Of a stretch of 39,692 nt of DNA, positions 541 to 39,692 are shown one piece after another. Position 1 is the first letter of the stretch. Every line of letters begins with the position of its first letter. Source of the DNA: Candidatus Limadaptatus stercoravium (lineage in GTDB: Bacteria > Bacillota > Clostridia > Christensenellales > CAG-917); contig DVJC01000034.1 of assembly GCA_018710835.1 (NCBI GenBank), positions 1-39,692 of the forward strand, in the 5' to 3' direction. Made by a program: the position numbers and the translations under genes. The notes below the pieces were generated by a model. It did not search any database and was not told the origin of the DNA. It saw nothing but the letters and a program-made list of their open reading frames with translations.

Positions 541-1773
541 TCATCTTTTGAAGGGCAGGAAATCGTCGTCCTCATGCAGATTGGTCGCGAGATCGTTTTT
601 CAGCATGAGTCCGCGTTTTACCGCCTTGTATCCGTATTTGCCGCGTATGCGGTCAATGCTTTTTCCGAGATTGGTTTCTTTTTCGTCATTTTCCCCGTCG
701 AACAGCGAAAGCTGCGTCATGCTTCCGTCCGTGAGCCGCGTCGCGGCGACGGTCACCGCGCGGAGCGGCTGTGGGAATGCGTGTATCTTGGGGAGCAGCG
801 CGATGGCGCGCTCCGCGATTTCGGAGGCGGCGCACGTCGCCGACGGCAGGGTGCACTGCGCTGATTTGTGGTGCAGAGTGGTCGCTTCGCGCACGGAAAG
901 ACCTATGCCTTCCGCCGAGAGTCCGTAACGGCGCAGGCGCATGGCGACAAGCTCCGCGAGAGCGTACACCACGATCTTGAAATCCTCCTCCGAGGTGATG
1001 TCGCGCGGAGTGGTGGTGCCGTGGCTCACGCTTTTCGGAGTGCGCTTGTCGTAGTACAGCCGCACTTCCTCGCTCTCTATACCCCGCGCCGCGTCGGACA
1101 TTTTGTCCGCGACGACGCCGAAGTGCTCGCGCAGCATCCCTCTGTCGGCGGCGGCGAGAGCGCGTATGGTGCGTATGCCGAGGAGTTCGAGCCTGTGCGC
1201 CGTGCTTTTGCCTATCATGATAAGCTCGGACGGAGCCATTCCGCCGATGATGTCCATATAATGCGCGCGGTCGAGCACGACGGTGGCGTCGGGCTTCTTG
1301 AGGTCGCTGCCGAGCTTTGCCAGCACTTTCGTGAACGACACGCCGACGGAGATGGTGAGTCCCGTGCGCTCTTTCACCGTTTCGCGTATTCTGTCCGCGA
1401 GCCCCTTGCCGTCGCAGCCGAAGAGTTTGAGCGATCCCGTGACGTCCAGCCAGCATTCGTCCAGCCCGAAACTTTCCACCCTGTCGGTGAACTCGGTGTA
1501 AATGCCGAACACCTGTTTGCTGTACTTCACGTATTCGTCGTAGTGCGGCGGCACGAGAACTATGCCGGGACACTTCTTTTTCGAGATCCATACAGCTTCG
1601 CCCGTGGCGACGCCGGCTTGTTTCGCGAGCATGTTTTTTGCCAGGACGATGCCGTGTCTGACTTCGGGATCGCCGCATACGGCAAGCGGCATCCCGTCGT
1701 ATTCGGGATGCGCCTTCTGTTCCACCGATGCGTAGAAATTGTTCAGATCGCAGTGCAGGATCGTCCTGTCCAT
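541..1773 (-). CDS. dinB: DNA polymerase IV (Y-family translesion polymerase)
   Basis: ORF 541..1848 minus. The family-typical N-terminus MDRTILHCDLNNFYASVEQ begins at the internal Met (ATG 1773-1771). The 25 upstream codons have no RBS. Thumb and little-finger regions are present. Confidence 0.92.
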   Translation of the reverse strand: MDRTILHCDLNNFYASVEQKAHPEYDGMPLAVCGDPEVRHGIVLAKNMLAKQAGVATGEAVWISKKKCPGIVLVPPHYDEYVKYSKQVFGIYTEFTDRVESFGLDECWLDVTGSLKLFGCDGKGLADRIRETVKERTGLTISVGVSFTKVLAKLGSDLKKPDATVVLDRAHYMDIIGGMAPSELIMIGKSTAHRLELLGIRTIRALAAADRGMLREHFGVVADKMSDAARGIESEEVRLYYDKRTPKSVSHGTTTPRDITSEEDFKIVVYALAELVAMRLRRYGLSAEGIGLSVREATTLHHKSAQCTLPSATCAASEIAERAIALLPKIHAFPQPLRAVTVAATRLTDGSMTQLSLFDGENDEKETNLGKSIDRIRGKYGYKAVKRGLMLKNDLATNLHEDDDFLPFKR

Positions 1774-6857: not shown

Positions 6858-7505
6858 TTAAAAAAATTCGCATTCTAGAAACTTTGGAATGTTGTGCCCC
6901 CTCCTTCCCTACGGGCTTTCCTCCCCCGTGCAGAATGTATTGTCGTACTCCCAAAATGCGGGACTAACGCCGTACCTCTGCAAGAGTTTTTAATATCGCA
7001 CTAACATAATCAAGCGGAGAACGGTAATCACCGAAATCCCTGCACGGGCGGAGGAAGGCGACTCGACGCGCAAGACGCCCGTGTCTACTTAGTGTTACGT
7101 CTAGCTTGCGAGGTCGCGGAGCGCGCCGCGGCGTTCAAGCGGCGGCTACGCCGCCTGTGAACGCTTGGGGTCCCCGCAAAAAATCTTCGTATTTTTTGTG
7201 GGGCTCCCTTGGGTGAGCGGCGCGTAGTTCCGTTTTCAAACGAGCAAACGTTAAGAAAAATAGTTTTCTTTCGTCTCCGAACAAATGAACGCTGGGTATG
7301 GGTTTTTCTTTTCCGTCTTTGAACGGGCAATCGTTAAGAAATGTTTTATTCCGTCTTCGGACAAGTGAGTGTTGAAAATAAGTTTGTTTTTCATCTTCGA
7401 ATGTGTGCTCGTCGTACTCAAGAACACTCCAAACAGGAGCGCCTAGCTCCGTTATTGAACTTGAAAATTTTCTTAAACACATTTTGCAAAAGGGGCGCGT
7501 CCCAA
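6858..7505 (-). repeat. Copy A of a dispersed ~0.6-kb modular non-coding element (inverted relative to copies B and C)
   Basis: The reverse complement is collinear with 30371-30876. Identical runs include ttcctccgcccgtgcagggatttc, gcgttagtcccgcattttgggag, cattctgcacgggggaggaaagcccg and agggaaggagggggcacaacattcc. It has five tandem ~40-nt sub-repeats (7200-7409). No reading frame is conserved. Confidence 0.85.
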
Positions 7506-11842: not shown

Positions 11843-12336
11843 TCATTCTCGGTATAGATCCGGGGCTTGCGACCATGGGCTACGGAGTGGTGGAAAGCGT
11901 GAAAGGCAACGTGTCCGTCGTGGACTACGGCGTCGTCACCACGCCTAAGGACCTCACTCTTCCGCAGCGGCTCAGGCGTATAGAAGAGGGCGTGACCGCG
12001 CTCATCGAAAAGTTCCGTCCCGAAAACATCGCCATAGAGGAGCTGTTCTTCTCCAAGAACATCACCAACGGCATCATGGTGGCGGAGGCGAGGGGAGTCA
12101 TTCTGCTCACTGCGGACAAGCTCGTCGGAGAGGAAGTCTACGAATATACGCCCAACCAGATCAAGCAGGCTATCACGGGCTACGGCGGCGCGGACAAAAT
12201 GCAGATGCAGCTTATGGTGCAGGCACTCCTGCGTCTAAAAAAGGTGCCGCGTCCCGACGACGCGGCGGACGCGCTCGCAGTCGCCCTATGCCATGCCCAT
12301 ACGAGCAGATTGTCCACGCAGTTCAAGGTAAGGTGA
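11839..12336 (+). CDS. ruvC: Crossover junction endodeoxyribonuclease RuvC
   Basis: MIILGIDPGLATMGYGVV...IEELFF...PDDAADALAVALCH carries the catalytic acidic residues. The ATG at 11839 overlaps the upstream stop. Confidence 0.93.
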   Translation: MIILGIDPGLATMGYGVVESVKGNVSVVDYGVVTTPKDLTLPQRLRRIEEGVTALIEKFRPENIAIEELFFSKNITNGIMVAEARGVILLTADKLVGEEVYEYTPNQIKQAITGYGGADKMQMQLMVQALLRLKKVPRPDDAADALAVALCHAHTSRLSTQFKVR

Positions 12337-12372
12337 TGAGCGGGGAAGATGTCGGAGTACGGTCGTCAGCGC

Positions 12373-12447
12373 GCGGCGGATGCGCTCGCAGTCGCCCTAT
12401 GCCACGCCCACACGAGCAGACTGTCAACGCAGTTCAAGGTAAGGTGA
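12373..12447 (+). repeat. Second, displaced copy of the last 24 codons plus stop of ruvC
   Basis: 70/75 identical to 12262-12336 at an offset of 111 nt, so it is in the same frame. All 5 differences are synonymous. Confidence 0.9.
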
Positions 12448-28088: not shown

Positions 28089-28127
28089 TAAAAACGGGGC
28101 ATGACGGAATGCCCGGAAGGAGTTAAT

Positions 28128-30242
28128 ATGGAAAGAAAAATTTTCAAGACGACAGTCGGCGGCAGAGAGATGAGCGTTGAAGTCGGCGCTTACTGCGGTC
28201 AGGCGAACGGCAGCTGCATAGTGCGCTGCGGCGACACGGTGGTCATGGTCAACGCCACCATGGCGAAAGAGCCCCGCGAGGGAATGGACTACTTCCCCCT
28301 CAGCGTGGATTACGAAGAGAAGATGTACGCCGTGGGCAAGATCCCCGGCGGCTTCAAGAAGAGAGAGGGCAGAGCGAGCGACAAGGCGATCCTCACGGCG
28401 CGTCTTATCGACCGTCCCATCCGTCCTCTGTTCCCCAAGGGAATGTACAACGACGTGTCCGTGGTGGCGACGGTGCTCTCCGTGGACACCAACATTCCTC
28501 CGGAAGTTTTCGGAATGATCGGTTCGTCGATCGCGCTGTCCATATCGGACATTCCCTTTGCCGGTCCCACCGGCTCCGTGGTGGTCGGACTCGTTGACGG
28601 ACAGTACGTCATCAACCCCGACAGCGCGCAGAGAGCGAAATCCAAGCTGCACCTCAGCCTTTCCGGCACGCGCGACGCGATCATGATGGTCGAGGCGGGC
28701 GCGGACGTCGTCACCGAGCAGGAAATGCTGGGAGCGATCCTCTTCGGACACGAAGAGATCAAGAAGATCGTTTCCTTCATCGACGGCATTGTCGCGGAAG
28801 TCGGCAAGCCCAAGGTGGAGATCGAGCTGGAGACCATCCCCGCGGACATCGACGCGGCGGTGCGCGCGTATGCGGACAAGAAGATGGACTATGTCCTCGA
28901 GAGCTTCGACCGTACCGAGAGAGATCAGCGCGAGGACGCCCTCAACGAGGACGTGCTGGCGCATTTTGCGGACGAGTTCAACGACGTCGCCAAAAAGACC
29001 AAGTTCATTCTCGACAGCCTCTACTACCTCAAGAAGGAGAAGGTCCGCGCAAAGATCCTCGACGGCGGCGTGCGTCCCGACGGCAGAAGCCTTACGGACA
29101 TCCGTCCCATTTGGTGCGAAGTCGGTCTGCTCCCCAGAGCCCACGGCTCCGCGGTGTTCACCAGAGGACAGACTCAGGCGATGACCGTCGCCACCCTCGG
29201 CACCATCTCCGAAGTGCAGAAACTCGAAGGTCTTGACGACGAGTATTACAAGAGGTACATGCACCAGTACAACATGCCCGGCTATTCCACGGGCGAGGCG
29301 AAGCCTCTCCGCAGCCCCGGCAGACGCGAGATCGGTCACGGCGCACTCGCCGAGCGCGCTCTCGAACCCGTGCTCCCGAGCGAGGAAGAGTTCCCGTACG
29401 CGATCCGCACGGTCAGCGAGATCCTGAGCTCCAACGGTTCCACTTCCCAAGCTTCCGTGTGCGGCAGCACCCTGTCGCTTATGGACGCCGGCGTGCCCAT
29501 CAAGGCGCCCGTCGCGGGCATTGCAATGGGACTCATCAAGGACGCTGACCATCACAGAGTCGCAGTGCTCAGCGACATCCAGGGGCTTGAGGACTTCCTC
29601 GGCGACATGGACTTCAAGGTCGCAGGCACAGCCGAAGGCATCACCGCCATTCAGATGGACATCAAGATCAAGGGCATCGACGAGGAGATCCTCACCAAGG
29701 CGCTCGAACAGGCGCGCAAGGGCAGACTCTTCATCCTCGACAAGATGCTGAGCGTACTTCCCGAACCCCGTAAGGAACTCAGCAAGTGGGCGCCCAAGAT
29801 CGTGTCCTTCTCCATCGATCCCGACAAGATCCGCGACGTCATCGGCAGCGGCGGCAAGACAATCAACAAGATCATCGACGAGACCGGCGTCAAGATCGAC
29901 ATCAACGACGAGGGACAGATCTTCATCGCTTCCAACGATATGGACGCGATCGCGCAGGCGCGTAAGATCGTCGAGAACATCGTCCGCGACGTCGAAGTCG
30001 GCGACGTGTACGAGGGCAAGGTGGTCAAGATCATGGAGAACGACAAGGGACAGTTCGGCGCGAGCGTCAACTTTGCTCCCGGCAAGGACGGCATGATCCA
30101 CATCTCCAAGCTCTCCAAGGAGAGAGTGGACAAGGTCACCGACGTCGTCAACGTGGGCGACATCGTCCTCGTCAAGGTCATCAAGATCGACGAGAAACAC
30201 CGCGTGGATCTGCGCCTGAAAGAAATCATCAAAAAAGCCTGA
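28128..30242 (+). CDS. pnp: Polyribonucleotide nucleotidyltransferase (PNPase)
   Basis: Two RNase PH domains, a KH domain (GSGGKTINKI) and an S1 domain (GDVYEGKVVKI). The ATG at 28128 follows ggaaggag. Confidence 0.97.
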   Translation: MERKIFKTTVGGREMSVEVGAYCGQANGSCIVRCGDTVVMVNATMAKEPREGMDYFPLSVDYEEKMYAVGKIPGGFKKREGRASDKAILTARLIDRPIRPLFPKGMYNDVSVVATVLSVDTNIPPEVFGMIGSSIALSISDIPFAGPTGSVVVGLVDGQYVINPDSAQRAKSKLHLSLSGTRDAIMMVEAGADVVTEQEMLGAILFGHEEIKKIVSFIDGIVAEVGKPKVEIELETIPADIDAAVRAYADKKMDYVLESFDRTERDQREDALNEDVLAHFADEFNDVAKKTKFILDSLYYLKKEKVRAKILDGGVRPDGRSLTDIRPIWCEVGLLPRAHGSAVFTRGQTQAMTVATLGTISEVQKLEGLDDEYYKRYMHQYNMPGYSTGEAKPLRSPGRREIGHGALAERALEPVLPSEEEFPYAIRTVSEILSSNGSTSQASVCGSTLSLMDAGVPIKAPVAGIAMGLIKDADHHRVAVLSDIQGLEDFLGDMDFKVAGTAEGITAIQMDIKIKGIDEEILTKALEQARKGRLFILDKMLSVLPEPRKELSKWAPKIVSFSIDPDKIRDVIGSGGKTINKIIDETGVKIDINDEGQIFIASNDMDAIAQARKIVENIVRDVEVGDVYEGKVVKIMENDKGQFGASVNFAPGKDGMIHISKLSKERVDKVTDVVNVGDIVLVKVIKIDEKHRVDLRLKEIIKKA

Positions 30243-30876
30243 GGACACTATTTAGCGATCTGCTTTGTCAGCCCCCGTATTCAGACCTCTCACGTACGAT
30301 AAGTACGCTACGAGTCCTGAATACGGGGGCTTTCGCGCATATCATCTAAATATCGCGCCCTCAGATGACGTGCGCTTATTCAGGGAATACTTGAGTACGA
30401 CGATTGCTCGTTCGGAGACGGAAAAGAAAACTTATACCTGATGTTTACTCATTCGAAGACGGAATAAATCATTATTTTCTTGACGTACACTCGTTCGAAG
30501 ATGTTCCCACGCGCCGCTCAGCCAAAGGAGCCCCACAAAAATTCAAAGACTTTTTGTGGGGACCCCGGACTTGCACAGGCGGTGTAACCGCCTCTTGCAA
30601 GTCGCGGCGCGAAAAGTGAGTGCCGAGCACTAGACGAATACTTGAGTAGACACGGGCGTGAGTGTGCGAGCGCCGAATTCCTCCGCCCGTGCAGGGATTT
30701 CAGTGGGTACCGTTCTCCGCTTGGTTATGTGAGTGCGATACCAAAATTTTGGTATTCGTATAGCGTTAGTCCCGCATTTTGGGAGCACGGCACTCCATTC
30801 TGCACGGGGGAGGAAAGCCCGAAGGGAAGGAGGGGGCACAACATTCCCCGTGTGATTGCGGAGTTTATTGTTTTTT
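30243..30876 (+). repeat. Copy B of the dispersed ~0.6-kb modular non-coding element, starting directly after the pnp stop codon
   Basis: The 5' hairpin module is shared with copy C. The sub-repeats, two hairpins and the 3' domain are shared with copy A. No conserved ORF. Confidence 0.85.
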
Positions 30877-36710: not shown

Positions 36711-36755
36711 ATTCGTACTGTTGCAATCAATCTGCGATAACTATTCGGAGTGTAT

Positions 36756-39110
36756 ATGAAGAAGAAAGTAACGATATTGCTTGTTCTCGTACTCGCGCTT
36801 TCCGTGCTTGTCGGTACGCTCGTCGGGTGCAATTCCATCATCACCCTCAACGAGGAAAGGGACGCGAATCAGGTGGTCGCCACCGTGAGTTACGCCGGAC
36901 AGACCTCGGAGATCTACAAGTATGAGCTGGCGATGAGTTTCAACTCCTACGCCTACATCTACCATGCCTACTACGACATGACCTATCAGGAAGCGGCGGA
37001 CTACATCCTGCAGTCGCTTGCCCAGCGCGAACTGCTCGTGCTCTTTGCCAAGGACGAACTCGTCAGCCTGCGCAACGAACGCGAGGGCAGGAACGATTCC
37101 CCCGCGGGCGTCTCCGTGGCGGACCTTCTCTCCGGCAGCGAGCTTGACCGCGCGATCGACAACGTCAACGACGACATCGTTTCGGCTATCAACACCGCGC
37201 TCGAGACTCTCATCAGCGCCAACAATCCTTCCTCTTCCACCGGCGGCTCTTCCGCCGAGTACGAGGAGTACAACGGTGCGGACGCGATCACGATCCGCTT
37301 CGATTCCAGGGGCGGCAGCACGGTTGACCGCGAGCGCATCCAGAACGGCACCGCGATCTTCGAACCTGCGGAACCCACTTACGACGGATACACATTCTAC
37401 GGCTGGTCCACGGAGCCTATCTCCGTTGACGAGGACATCGACACTTCTCTCATATGGGATTTCGACGACGAAGTCACTCTCGACATCGAAAACGGCGAGA
37501 AGAGCATGACTCTTTATGCGGTGTGGAAGCCCTATCTCGAACCCCGTCCCGTGCGCGAAGCGGCGGAGGAAGATCCCGACGCGGATTACGACCCCGACTA
37601 CGACATGCCAGAGGCGGAGTTCTCTCCCCACGCGCTCGGAGAGGACGGCAAGCTCACCGCCGCTTTCAGGGAACTGATCATGAACGGCGAGGTGGAGTTC
37701 GACTGCCTGGCGTCTTACTCCTCCGAGAAGAAGACGGAATATCTCAACGAATATCTCGACGACGCGGCGAAGAACGTGGCGGACGATTTCGCCTCTCTGC
37801 GTACGGATTACGACTATTATCTCGAAAACGAGATGAACACCCTGCTCATCACCAGACTGGAGCGCGAGATAGGCTCTTCGGCGTCCGTCAGCGACGAGGA
37901 AGTGCAGGCGCGCTTCGATCAGATGGTGGCAGCCAACCGCGAAGCCTACGGCGGCAACCGCACCTCTTACGAGTCCGCGCTGACCGGCGCGCTCTCCTCC
38001 GCTTATTACCACGAGTACACCTCCGCGGACGAGCGTTACGGATTCGTGCTCAACATTCTGCTGCAGCTGCCCGAAGAAGACCTCGCCGAGCTCACGCAGT
38101 GGGTCGAGGACGGGATCTATTCCGACAAGTCCGCCGTCATAGACAAACGCGACGAGCTTCTCCGTGCGCTTGAGATCAACGTCAGCAACCCCGATTACGA
38201 TCCCAACTACGTCTGCGACAACCATACCTGCGAGGCAGGCTCCGACTGCGATCCCATGACATGTCCGAATCACGCCTGCAAGGATAAGGTGAACGAGGAC
38301 GCGGATTGGAACCGGATCGTGGAGTTCGTCTACGATAAAGACACAGGCACGGCGGAGATCAGATACAACGTGACGGCGTGCCCGTCCATGGCGTATCTGC
38401 CCGGCACCGTCCCCGCGTTCACGCAGGAAGGAGAGAAGACCGGCATAGTGGAGCAGATCTACAACAGCCTCGCGCAGGTGACTCAGGCGGTGAAGGACGG
38501 CATGCCCGCAGTGCTCGGCGTCTACTGGACGCGCGAAGTCGCCACCGCATGGCTCTACCTCGTCGGCGACGACGCGGGCGGCACGTCCTCCGACTCCAAC
38601 AACGGCGGACTCGGCTATCTCGTCACCCCCGAAGGCACCGACTCCGGCTACATCGACGCTTTCACCGAACAGGCGCGCGCGCTCATCTCGGGCGGCGGCA
38701 CCGGCGCGTACACAACGGGCGGGCTTGAAGGCTCCTATGTCTTCGGCGACAACTTCATCGAGTCCGGTTCCACCAGCGGCGCGTATGCCGGCATCTTCAT
38801 CATTGTGGTGTCCGACGTGCCTTACGACACCGGTCTCAAAGGCGTGACGACGGACGCCGACGGCAATGCGAGTCAAATTGATCTTGCGTTCGGCGACGAC
38901 GGCATTCTGCCGCTCGATTACGTCATCGAATACGGTCCCACCCTTGAGGACTGCGTGACCATCCGCGAACAGATCAAGGACACCATCCTCACCAGCCGTC
39001 AGTCCGCGCTCTACGAAGAGAAGGTCAACGCCTTCGGCGTGGAGCACTACGAGAGCAACATTTCTTACAACAGAGGGGCGTACGAGTCGCTCTGGAAAAA
39101 CCTCGACTGA
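36756..39110 (+). CDS. Large PrsA/SurA-like lipoprotein with an inserted InlB-type B-repeat domain and a degenerate parvulin-like C-terminus
   Basis: Signal peptide with lipobox LVGC (Cys25). The SurA-N-like start reads NEERDANQVVATV...EIYKYEL. A Listeria-Bacteroides repeat signature is present (ITIRFDSRGGS...DGYTFYGWST...LYAVWKP). The C-terminus is parvulin-like (NNGGLGYLV...AFTEQARAL...GIFIIVVSD). The position after mfd is typical for prsA-like genes in Clostridia. Confidence 0.62.
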   Translation: MKKKVTILLVLVLALSVLVGTLVGCNSIITLNEERDANQVVATVSYAGQTSEIYKYELAMSFNSYAYIYHAYYDMTYQEAADYILQSLAQRELLVLFAKDELVSLRNEREGRNDSPAGVSVADLLSGSELDRAIDNVNDDIVSAINTALETLISANNPSSSTGGSSAEYEEYNGADAITIRFDSRGGSTVDRERIQNGTAIFEPAEPTYDGYTFYGWSTEPISVDEDIDTSLIWDFDDEVTLDIENGEKSMTLYAVWKPYLEPRPVREAAEEDPDADYDPDYDMPEAEFSPHALGEDGKLTAAFRELIMNGEVEFDCLASYSSEKKTEYLNEYLDDAAKNVADDFASLRTDYDYYLENEMNTLLITRLEREIGSSASVSDEEVQARFDQMVAANREAYGGNRTSYESALTGALSSAYYHEYTSADERYGFVLNILLQLPEEDLAELTQWVEDGIYSDKSAVIDKRDELLRALEINVSNPDYDPNYVCDNHTCEAGSDCDPMTCPNHACKDKVNEDADWNRIVEFVYDKDTGTAEIRYNVTACPSMAYLPGTVPAFTQEGEKTGIVEQIYNSLAQVTQAVKDGMPAVLGVYWTREVATAWLYLVGDDAGGTSSDSNNGGLGYLVTPEGTDSGYIDAFTEQARALISGGGTGAYTTGGLEGSYVFGDNFIESGSTSGAYAGIFIIVVSDVPYDTGLKGVTTDADGNASQIDLAFGDDGILPLDYVIEYGPTLEDCVTIREQIKDTILTSRQSALYEEKVNAFGVEHYESNISYNRGAYESLWKNLD

Positions 39111-39692
39111 GAGGGCGCTATTTAGCGAATAACTTTGTCAGGCGCATCAACGCGACCGCTTACGTACGGAAAGTACGCCGCGCGTCCGCGTTGATGCGCC
39201 TTTCGCGTTCTTCATCTAAAGGGGCTCCCCGCAAAATGTACATTTTGTGGGGTCCCCAGATCGCCCTCTCAGTTGACGTGCACTTATTTGGAGCGTCTTT
39301 GAGCACGACGTTCACTTGTTCGAAGCGTTCTTATACACGACGTGCGCTTTTCCGGGGCTGGAGCCGCCCAGCCAAAAAATACCCCACAAAAAATCCTTGC
39401 AGATTTTTTGCGGGGGCCCCGGACTTGCACATTGGACAGGGACAGAGTGCCGAACCGAAGGTCCAGCGATTGTTACGCGCGCAGCGCGTCAATCGCGTCG
39501 GGCAAGAAGTGCCGTACGCCGGCAATGCGCCATCTCTTCGCGAAGCGGGCGCATTACAAGTGGCATAATTTGCGGCACCGCAAAGGTGCCGCAATGCCGT
39601 CGCTCGTGCCCGAGCGCCGATGGTGTCCCCCGAAATGGTGGGTTCCCTGCAAGGGGGAACGATTTCGGGGGAAACCCGAAGGAAGGGGGTAA
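39111..39692 (+). repeat. Copy C of the dispersed modular non-coding element, starting directly after the stop codon and truncated by the window end
   Basis: It has the same 5' module as copy B (ctatttagcga...ctttgtcag, long hairpin, ctttcgcg...catctaaa). It also has 32-nt sub-repeats ending in acgacg, the ccccacaaaaaa/ttttttgcgggg hairpin and the 3' motif cgggggaaacccgaaggaaggggg. Confidence 0.8.

Follow-up and report, generated by a model that had tools for sequence, protein, structure and literature searches.

Why should two unrelated genes in one stretch of gut-bacterial DNA both run directly into a long, stable hairpin whose main stem is fully paired in each case and spelled differently in the two? 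The stretch, referred to here as the window, is a 39,692-nucleotide contig (DVJC01000034.1, assembly GCA_018710835.1) of Candidatus Limadaptatus stercoravium, a member of the Clostridia, and a preliminary description made from its letters alone had picked out the two hairpins, designated B and C, behind the gene for polynucleotide phosphorylase (pnp) and a gene for a protein with a Flg_new repeat, respectively. B and C are members of a previously undescribed family of ~125–135-nt palindromes in Christensenella-like gut Clostridia, and it is the family, its structure, its position, its conservation and its mode of evolution that we establish here. As to function, we tentatively favour a reading in which the element is a rod in the 3′ untranslated region (3′-UTR) of messenger RNA, similar to REP and ERIC repeats.

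Christensenella-like Clostridia are common, health-associated and little-studied inhabitants of the gut, and to our knowledge nothing is known of how they make or protect their mRNA 3′ ends. One conserved structure of ~125 nt stands behind dozens of their core genes and keeps the stop codon paired even across a change from TAA to TGA; the family therefore offers a testable way into the formation of 3′ ends, into a link between the termination of translation and the fate of mRNA, or into a new mode of persistence of DNA palindromes. The covariance model built here finds its copies specifically. The repeats also break short-read assemblies and mark points of rearrangement, and their annotation would improve both the assembly of metagenome-assembled genomes (MAGs) and the calling of gene ends.

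A palindrome family anchored at stop codons

Both window copies are imperfect palindromes made of five helices, termed P0, P1a, P1b, P2 and the P3/P4 apex (Table 1). The coordinates and sequences first given for the stems of B and C proved exact in every case, as did the observations that nine of the 14 stem positions differ between the copies with the arms remaining exact reverse complements, and that both stems enclose a 32-nt insert with cgtac-N5-gtacg. Folded alone, 110 nt of B reach -48.1 kcal/mol (z = -8.0) and 110 nt of C reach -51.0 kcal/mol (z = -5.0); 200 dinucleotide shuffles produced no fold as good for either, and DNA parameters give the same picture as RNA parameters. The flanks, originally taken to be single-stranded, are instead the arms of two helices that covary across the family, namely P1a (tatttag/ctaaata) and P1b (gaataac/gttcttc in the family form, ATCTGC/GCATAT in B), and the element starts not 1–3 nt past the stop codon, as had been thought, but at the stop codon itself, within P0. 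In C, the pairing of P0 reaches 8 nt into the coding sequence if two mismatches are allowed.

Relatives were collected in two scans, both of them pattern-based, so that positions inside the patterns are conserved by construction. A left-flank pattern applied to species-representative genomes returned 44 loci (related loci carry L numbers here), one of which is a chance match in Herpetosiphon, whereas the others belong to Clostridia MAGs labelled Christensenella sp., Clostridiales or Firmicutes CAG, with a few binned under other names. Their copies share a single architecture and a near-constant length. From 40 aligned copies, RNAalifold derived a consensus with 34 pairs, compensatory changes being present at 22, and in the genome-scan loci a covariance model based on this alignment recovers 66 sense-strand copies with E below 1e-13 (the genome set), many of which lack the search pattern and many of which stand in tandem arrays of two or three. 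A looser second pattern, which leaves P1a unconstrained, matched at least 120 stretches of metagenome contigs; among the matches listed, all come from human-gut assemblies, and 80 stretches hold 117 copies found by the model (the metagenome set).

Pairing is kept throughout both sets. Standard pairs occupy 96.4% of cells in the genome set (66 copies) and 95.3% in the metagenome set (117 copies), compared with 33–49% and 36–47%, respectively, when partners are slid by 1–3 columns. Shared descent of many copies makes such cell counts exceed the true number of independent events, a problem that does not touch the tally of pairs or of pair types; double-sided changes are seen at 30 of the 34 pairs in the genome set and likewise at 30 of 34 in the metagenome set. 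The observed covariation values were matched by 0 of 500 shuffles in either set, P1a covaries at five of its five pairs in the metagenome set, and the outer helix P0 covaries across the family in both. Uncompensated stems in further copies, random distances from genes and confinement to two loci had been named as outcomes that would speak against the hairpin; instead, 183 further copies are paired in 95–96% of cells, placement relative to the stop codon varies within narrow limits, and many loci carry the element.

These data also bear on the most sceptical explanation, in which the resemblance of B and C is due to chance, to neutral decay of a duplicated segment or to an assembly artefact. 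Copy B may indeed be recombinant or chimeric, given its half-module counterpart in locus L051 and its deaminase-gene context in L001–L006 (see below), and contig breaks are frequent at these repeats. Against this stand the 183 copies, which come from independent assemblies with the same architecture and covariation, the persistence of pnp with its element in at least six other species, and the absence of any shuffle that folds as well as B or C. We regard such an explanation as barely credible for the window, and for the family it is already refuted.

Once the copy that served to retrieve each locus is excluded, the density is about one array per 49 kb, that is, tens per genome; the window itself has two elements in 40 kb. 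Rfam 15 has no match over the element (window, with the B and A regions searched at E <= 10 beyond noise, and 18 related loci). A BLAST search of B plus its neighbour found no match in phage and plasmid collections, two scans of viral contigs likewise found none, and literature searches turned up no described repeat of this kind from Christensenella or Firmicutes.

Which parts are conserved was read from copies that the search patterns had not selected. The two arms are conserved and asymmetric (left GCGAATAACTNNGTCA, right TTYCNNGTTCTTCATC), with GCG-AATAAC-TNN-GTCA on the left and the pyrimidine-rich TTYC-NN-GTTCTTC-ATC on the right, and a conserved junction, GUCA/CUUUC, lies between the P1 helices and P2. 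Several mismatches, pyrimidine-pyrimidine ones in the P1 helices among them, are fixed, namely C·U between P0 and P1a, C·A and U·C within P1, and U·U or C·U at the junction, and the apex retains UCA on the immediate 5′ side of the P4 hairpin and T.GG on its 3′ side. P0, P1a, P2, P3 and P4 are free in sequence and kept in pairing; the lower helices are A/U-rich, P2 is G+C-rich, and the whole rod measures ~50 bp. The apical hairpin, described earlier as invariant, is so between B and C but not across the family, where P4 covaries (CGTAC/GTACG, TTTAC/GTAAA, CATAC/GTATG, TGTAC/GTACA).

The link to the stop codon is strict. The first copy of every array lies on the same strand as the upstream open reading frame (ORF), and in about 90% of 120 gene-adjacent copies the stop codon falls within the left arm. 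Among the genome-set copies with an upstream ORF of at least 100 aa, the first base of the stop stands 8–12 nt before the first P1a pair in 37 of 43 (all at 9–12 nt), inside P1a or P1b in 2 and further upstream in 4; the corresponding figures for the metagenome set are 56, 18 and 3 of 77. Stops inside the P1 helices are the TAG of TATTTAG, the TGA of TGATTGAG or the TAA of GAATAAC. P0 usually starts 0–8 nt upstream of the first base of the stop, and sometimes ~10–20 nt into the coding sequence. The middle base of the stop covaries with its partner ~120 nt downstream (pair 8/145), being A-U in 39 and G-C in 14 copies of the genome set, and A-U in 66, G-C in 23 and unpaired in 5 copies of the metagenome set.

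The genes so marked are core genes, housekeeping or highly expressed: pnp, fusA, rplA, groEL, gap, guaA, guaB, recR, dnaN, dnaB and ssb, together with those for V-ATPase subunit D, nifU, POR gamma, rubrerythrin, upp, metA and others. The pnp gene has an element in several species (window, L011, L015, L018, L039, L042, L045). The commonest left arm, for example window 30240–30262, has stops in three frames (TAA or TGA in P0, TAG in TATTTAG, TAA in GAATAAC), and the complement of the right arm similarly holds TAG and TGA in TATTTAGATGAAG; some ORFs use the inner stops, such as that of V-ATPase D in L027.

Evolution and strain variation

Orthologous copies fall into two classes. Those after pnp and fusA are 98–100% identical, compared with 92–95% in the last 240 nt of the gene, and that after a DUF1292 gene is 96% identical, compared with 87%; others differ in P2 and the apical cassette, and show 73–76% identity beside 90–92% in coding DNA. 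The same cassette, GGCACGGCTTG..., can be found behind different genes (fusA in L007, gap in L028, L035 and L037, groEL in L024). A higher conservation of orthologous copies than of coding DNA is not what decaying selfish DNA would be expected to show. As judged from these alignments, the family is maintained by purifying selection at each locus, and diversifies through tandem duplication and wholesale exchange of the P2 and apical cassette. The suggestion that the compensated changes between B and C reflect structure-specific recognition is thereby weakened: pairing is indeed kept family-wide, but the difference between B and C is one between two old cassette lineages, swapped whole, rather than the drift of a single stem, and resynthesis of an arm does occur at such loci.

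Within the species of the window, how many modules stand behind the same two genes, and of which type, varies from strain to strain, and no fewer than five stem types are present. Arrays have the appearance of tandemly duplicated complete units, P0 included: in L004, set beside L006, the second unit retains AGAGGGCGCG where the first has TGAGGGC, and second modules at pnp loci are preceded by remnants of the gene end (AAAGCCTAA), the order of modules varying by species. Targeted insertion, as proposed at the outset, finds no support here, given this growth of arrays by tandem duplication that includes the stop-codon helix and the lack of a target-site duplication. On the far side of the array, pnp loci also have the final ~20 nt of pnp in inverted form. 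Half modules occur in which the left flank stays with the gene (L003/L005/L006, L051, L008/L029, L041/L048), and the right arm in L041/L048 repeats the left arm almost perfectly in inverted form, GTCAG included, which reads as the signature of hairpin-templated resynthesis.

Rearrangement and cassette exchange at element sites, together with an imperfect palindrome that has ...AAC/GTT... boxes, fixed mismatches and a variable central stem, stands after ORFs and sometimes forms arrays, recall a site-specific recombination site that a tyrosine recombinase would use as a folded single strand, as with integron attC or CTX attP/dif-like sites. An attC site is likewise a structure-defined folded palindrome with unpaired bases at fixed places and a variable middle, directly 3′ of ORFs. 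However, the boxes of the element are GAATAAC/GTTCTTC rather than RYYYAAC/GTTRRRY, so that neither R-box consensus nor box order agrees, and they form the inner and not the outer pair, the outer helices being TATTTAG/CTAAATA and P0; the apex is conserved; the stop codon lies in the stem as a rule; and the genes upstream belong to the core set and occupy orthologous positions, unlike promoterless cassettes. Half modules do not break at one position (GT|CA in L003, the apical loop in L051), and no integrase gene was noticed nearby, the ORFs not having been systematically scanned. A recombination site is therefore very unlikely, and the kinship with attC and with IS200/IS605 ends that had been considered initially is not borne out; for the latter, as for PATE architecture, a pair of distinct subterminal end hairpins with cleavage tetranucleotides would be expected, whereas the element is a single continuous, composite palindrome.

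Synteny breaks at element B. In the window (30240–30370), a full module comes after pnp, ahead of genes for a 74-aa product, a glmU-like protein, pth and mfd; in the near-identical strain L051 (14158–14359), pnp is followed by the left half-module only and then by unrelated DNA; and in L001–L006 (L001:7494–7620), a deaminase gene precedes a module of the same stem type and the same downstream genes. The difference is due either to recombination between modules or to an assembly chimera, and the pnp–B junction was not found in the scan of the metagenome collection. As pnp with its element is conserved in other species, a chimeric join at B would leave the conclusions on the family intact. Many contigs end in or just past arrays, notably after fusA (L009, L024, L037, L055, L016, L033, L038), and hairpin arrays, or what follows them, break short-read assemblies.

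RNA rod, terminator or DNA palindrome

In the tentatively favoured reading, the element would be transcribed as the tail of the upstream mRNA and, like REP, ERIC and BOX repeats, would form a stable structure in the 3′-UTR by which the 3′ end of the mRNA is set or protected. In A+T-rich relatives it might also act as a weak transcription terminator through P2 followed by CUUUCUUGUUCUUC. Since the stop codon lies inside P0, a terminating ribosome would have to melt P0 and P1a, and this melting would couple translation termination to the state of the rod. For E. coli, PMC12306157 (citing its ref. 17) reports that many REPs lie within 15 nt of the stop codon, and that those less than 16 nt away stall ribosomes and lower translation, which provides a precedent for a hairpin so placed acting through the ribosome. 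Several observations speak for action at the RNA level: the orientation along with the gene, the anchoring at the stop codon, the conserved asymmetric arms and the purifying selection at each locus. Canonical terminators follow only 4 of 42 arrays, and in L010 the stretch from rplA to the L10-leader promoter has no terminator-like signal other than one within the element. Action as RNA, and a role as stabiliser, terminator or coupler of termination, is what we infer from this pattern.

A rival that shares part of this evidence holds that the element is a lineage-specific, elaborate intrinsic terminator, with P2 and the apex as the hairpin, the right flank as the U-tract, the left flank as the A-rich tract and the arrays as tandem terminators. 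It has the form of one at first sight, with a G+C-rich stem, a pyrimidine- or U-rich tract after it, a complementary A-rich tract before it and a place at gene ends; moreover, CUUUCUUGUUCUUC directly follows the G+C-rich P2 in most A+T-rich relatives, a simple terminator scan flags the element at 12 of 25 module-bearing gene ends and in L010, and the scarcity of canonical terminators after arrays would be accounted for. The shortened variants in L008 and L029 consist of the left flank, a plain hairpin and TTTTAT, and the element precedes independent transcription units (L10 leader, L21 leader, SRP RNA). Nevertheless, the hairpin-then-U-run pattern, which A+T-rich relatives fit loosely (CUUUCUUGUU), is absent in B and C, and these and other G+C-rich copies lack the U-run (UUUCGCGCAU) with all other features kept. 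P1a and P0 covary strongly though they would lie beyond the presumed point of termination, the conserved junction, mismatches and apical UCA, like the large structured apex, would be superfluous for a terminator, and the same genomes possess ordinary terminators (for example in L003 and L045). A terminator in this full sense is accordingly improbable.

The rod has its own difficulties, and several of them point to DNA. A usable U-run is lacking in B and C (CUUUCGCG), which excludes termination as the function that is conserved, and the 3′ arms of P1 and P0, which covary, would be outside the RNA if transcription ended at the U-rich tract. Mismatches of the G·U and A·C kinds number 55:34 in the genome set and 74:79 in the metagenome set (129:113 overall); functional RNAs usually tolerate G·U far better, so that near-equality points to Watson–Crick pairing of DNA or to copying from arm to arm. 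Within P1 and P2 the ratio is 34:10 in the genome set and 43:43 in the metagenome set, and as this sense-strand bias was not repeated in the larger set, the mismatch ratio was dropped as evidence for RNA. Folding favours the antisense strand over the sense strand by 3.3 kcal/mol on average, an advantage that arises only through purine-purine mismatches and leaves the strand test by folding energy uninformative. The inverted gene-end copies of up to ~20 nt at pnp loci and the copied arm in L041/L048 look like products of DNA-level, hairpin-templated synthesis, and gain, loss, halving and rearrangement between strains are typical of unstable or mobile DNA palindromes. Finally, for every copy a role at the RNA level is something we infer from comparative sequence.

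Much of this is expected if the element is a REPIN- or MITE-like palindromic repeat acting at the DNA level, where it matters as single-stranded DNA or as a cruciform. Its spread or upkeep would be owed either to a trans-acting enzyme specific for hairpins, be it a Y1 HUH transposase/RAYT or some other nuclease or recombinase, or to template-switching in replication, tandem duplication and gene conversion between copies alone; pairing would be preserved by arm-to-arm copying together with the enzyme's need for a hairpin, and the link to stop codons would arise because copies survive only where insertion or duplication leaves the ORF intact. Besides the equal frequency of G·T and A·C mismatches, the inverted gene ends, the resynthesised arm and the variation between close strains, it would account for the recurrence of one P2 and apical cassette behind different genes, the synteny break and the inverted neighbouring repeat exactly at element sites, the tens of copies per genome, and the tag-like YGTC just 5′ of the G+C-rich stem, which is comparable to that of CGTC-tagged REPs (PMC3733652). 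On the other side, orthologous copies exceed the adjacent coding DNA in conservation, which argues for a function at each locus; no target-site duplication or conserved outer terminus is seen, P0 being locus-specific; and arm-to-arm copying has not erased the conserved asymmetry or the fixed mismatches. Every copy points the same way as the gene before it, head-to-head pairs in the manner of BIMEs or REPINs do not occur, the BLAST and viral-contig scans found no copies on phages or plasmids, and no transposase or recombinase gene was noticed beside any copy, although the ORFs were not systematically scanned. We consider a purely DNA-level repeat possible, if on balance unlikely.

The two lines of evidence might also be combined. 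A DNA palindrome that propagates itself by template-switch synthesis, independently of a transposase, could have been co-opted as a stop-anchored RNA rod read by a lineage-specific protein. Hairpin-templated synthesis would then copy the gene end in inverted form and thereby build the stop-codon helix, perfect the arms and seed tandem copies, and the protein that reads the rod would link translation termination to the fate of the mRNA 3′ end. Such a dual history is a rather doubtful proposal.

Known repeats and neighbouring elements

Among known repeats, the element works most like the REP/BIME, REPIN, ERIC, Correia and BOX palindromes, but lacks features by which members of each are recognised; the early placement of it as a REP-like or 3′-UTR element was nonetheless in the right neighbourhood, considering the helices that change and stay paired and the strict link to the stop codon. 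Like REPs and BIMEs, it is an extragenic imperfect palindrome in the 3′ untranslated part of operons, present in tens to hundreds of copies that are often clustered, and REPs too have been proposed to stabilise or attenuate at mRNA 3′ ends. Both have a short unpaired tag 5′ of a G+C-rich stem, which is YGTC here (CGTC, TGTC, TTGTC) and GTAG/CGTC in REPs (PMC3733652). The element differs in being 3–5 times longer (125–135 nt vs 20–40 nt) and a single composite unit of five helices, in having a locus-specific outer helix that includes the stop codon, in its co-orientation with the gene, never in inverted pairs or alternating, and in being kept at orthologous gene ends across species. CGTC-tagged REPs have been reported from five phyla, Firmicutes not among them, and have no known transposase (PMC3733652). 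No cognate RAYT (Y1 HUH) gene was noticed in the loci examined, which do not cover whole genomes and whose ORFs were not systematically scanned. REPINs are also ~100-nt hairpins with co-evolving arms, a population of copies within the genome, and arms more conserved than the centre; however, their arms are two copies of one REP, whereas those of the element differ and have fixed mismatches, its P2 is wholly different between copies instead of a few mutations from a master sequence, and its P0 is derived from the gene end.

The ERIC (IRU), Correia/NEMIS, BOX, RUP and EFAR families are imperfect palindromes of 100–170 nt in transcribed intergenic DNA that form RNA hairpins. Some of them lie against or across stop codons and affect the stability or termination of mRNA, BOX is modular, and the families have conserved termini, with duplication of a TA target for Correia and ERIC. 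The element shares the size class, the folding into RNA hairpins and the abutment to stop codons, and is built from modules as BOX is; it differs in having no conserved outer terminus, no target duplication and no sequence similarity to them, and in exchanging its internal cassettes whole between fixed flanks. The terminal inverted repeats and target duplication of a MITE are likewise lacking, as P0 varies by locus and no direct repeat flanks the element; strain differences in module number have boundaries that agree with tandem duplication of the P0-containing unit and not with clean insertion.

A few resemblances in single parts were considered and put aside. The apical loop is not a GNRA-like or boxB-like pentaloop, its first base being G in only 62% of copies and its last base A in 53%. 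P2 (GAGCCG...ACGTACG) is similar to domain V of group II introns, but there is no Rfam intron match; and TTAGCGA is like the branching-G motif of a retron msr/msd, but there is no reverse transcriptase, and the copies are many and stand after core genes. The right flank, GTTCTTCATC / GCTCTTTATC, presumably has a likeness to the NusB/NusE boxA, which was set aside, the site being base-paired.

Table 1. Elements B and C and other repeats of the window, with positions in related loci where a locus number is given.
Feature	Position	Strand	Remarks
pnp gene	28101..30242		polynucleotide phosphorylase, upstream of B
Element B, whole	30240..30363	+	rod hairpin from pnp stop codon to 3′ arm of outer helix; sequence, fold, model R1 107 bits, E = 1.8e-27
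B, P0 5′ arm TGAGGACA	30240..30247	+	includes pnp stop TGA 30240–30242; imperfect pairing with 30354–30363
B, left conserved flank CTATTTAGCGATCTGCTTTGTCA	30248..30270	+	5′ arms of P1a (TATTTAG) and P1b, junction GTCA
B, P2 5′ arm gcccccgtattcag	30271..30284	+	variable stem, exact reverse complement of 30317–30330; sequence, fold, family covariation
B, apical domain	30285..30316	+	P3 (ctc/gag), conserved TCA, P4 hairpin cgtac-gataa-gtacg
B, P2 3′ arm ctgaatacgggggc	30317..30330	+	sequence, fold
B, right conserved flank TTTCGCGCATATCATCTAAATAT	30331..30353	+	3′ arms of P1b and P1a
B, P0 3′ arm CGCGCCCTCA	30354..30363	+	comparison with relatives
Flg_new-repeat gene	36750..39110		786-aa protein, upstream of C
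Element C, whole	39108..39271	+	from Flg_new-repeat gene stop codon to 3′ arm of outer helix; sequence, fold, model R1 100 bits
C, P0 5′ arm TGAGAGGGCG	39108..39117	+	stop TGA 39108–39110; perfect pairing with 39262–39271
C, P2 arms and apical domain	39141..39200	+	ggcgcatcaacgcg (39141–39154), exact reverse complement of 39187–39200, around 32-nt apical domain; sequence, fold
C, nested small palindromic insertion GGGGCTCCCCGCAAAATGTACATTTTGTGGGGTCCCC	39221..39259	+	between P1a 3′ arm and P0 3′ arm; other repeat family
C, P0 3′ arm CGCCCTCTCA	39262..39271	+	pairs with 39108–39117
~600-nt repeat, copy A	about 6880..7480	-	between Clp ATPase gene (Pfam ClpB/AAA) and hpf-like gene
~600-nt repeat, second copy	30364..30860	+	
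~600-nt repeat, third copy	39272..39692	+	cut by window end
Other small palindromes, window	30527..30570; 7160..7210; 39378..39425		same family as insertion in C
Other small palindromes, L001	L001:7629..7660; L001:8283..8312		same family as insertion in C
76-nt direct repeat	12261..12336; 12372..12447		93% identity, 111-nt spacing
Gut-1 RNA (RF01706)	L017:3999..4081; L042:1015..1095	-	directly downstream of arrays
Gut-1 RNA (RF01706)	L045:~600..700		

In an exact-protein look-up, the pnp and Flg_new products had no record, probably owing to the choice of start codon, and the pth product and a radical-SAM protein were matched. Next to B and C stands a non-coding repeat of ~500–600 nt, present in three copies of 74–79% identity, and the hairpin had at first been taken for its 5′ module. 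The two are independent elements, adjacent by happenstance: the repeat is found only in the species of the window (window, L001–L006) and is absent from the 43 hairpin loci of other species (L007–L050), its copy A has no hairpin, and the hairpin occurs without the repeat in dozens of genomes. In L003, L005 and L006 the repeat behind the Flg_new gene is inverted, with the left flank of the hairpin still attached to the gene, and this opposite orientation behind the same gene indicates that the repeat is invertible or mobile. It has no Rfam match, and contains 1–5 tandem units of ~40 nt (...GTTCGAAGACGGAA...), a hairpin CCCCACAAAAA...TTTTTGTGGGG-N-CCCC and a conserved tail of ~300 nt that ends in GGGGGAGGAAAGCCCGAAGGGAAGGAGGGGG.

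A second family of small palindromes (~35–40 nt), of the form GGGG-N-CCCC(R)C-AAAA...TTTT-G(Y)GGGG-N-CCCC, shows precise presence or absence between strains and occurs also inside element C and the ~600-nt repeat. The copy nested in C (~38 nt) is one such case, with presence or absence at the same point differing in strains L004 and L006. The Gut-1 RNA region downstream of arrays is itself an array of short hairpins, each followed by AATATCAC. The two copies of the 76-nt direct repeat of the window end in TAAGGTGA and lie at the junction of two ORFs on opposite strands.

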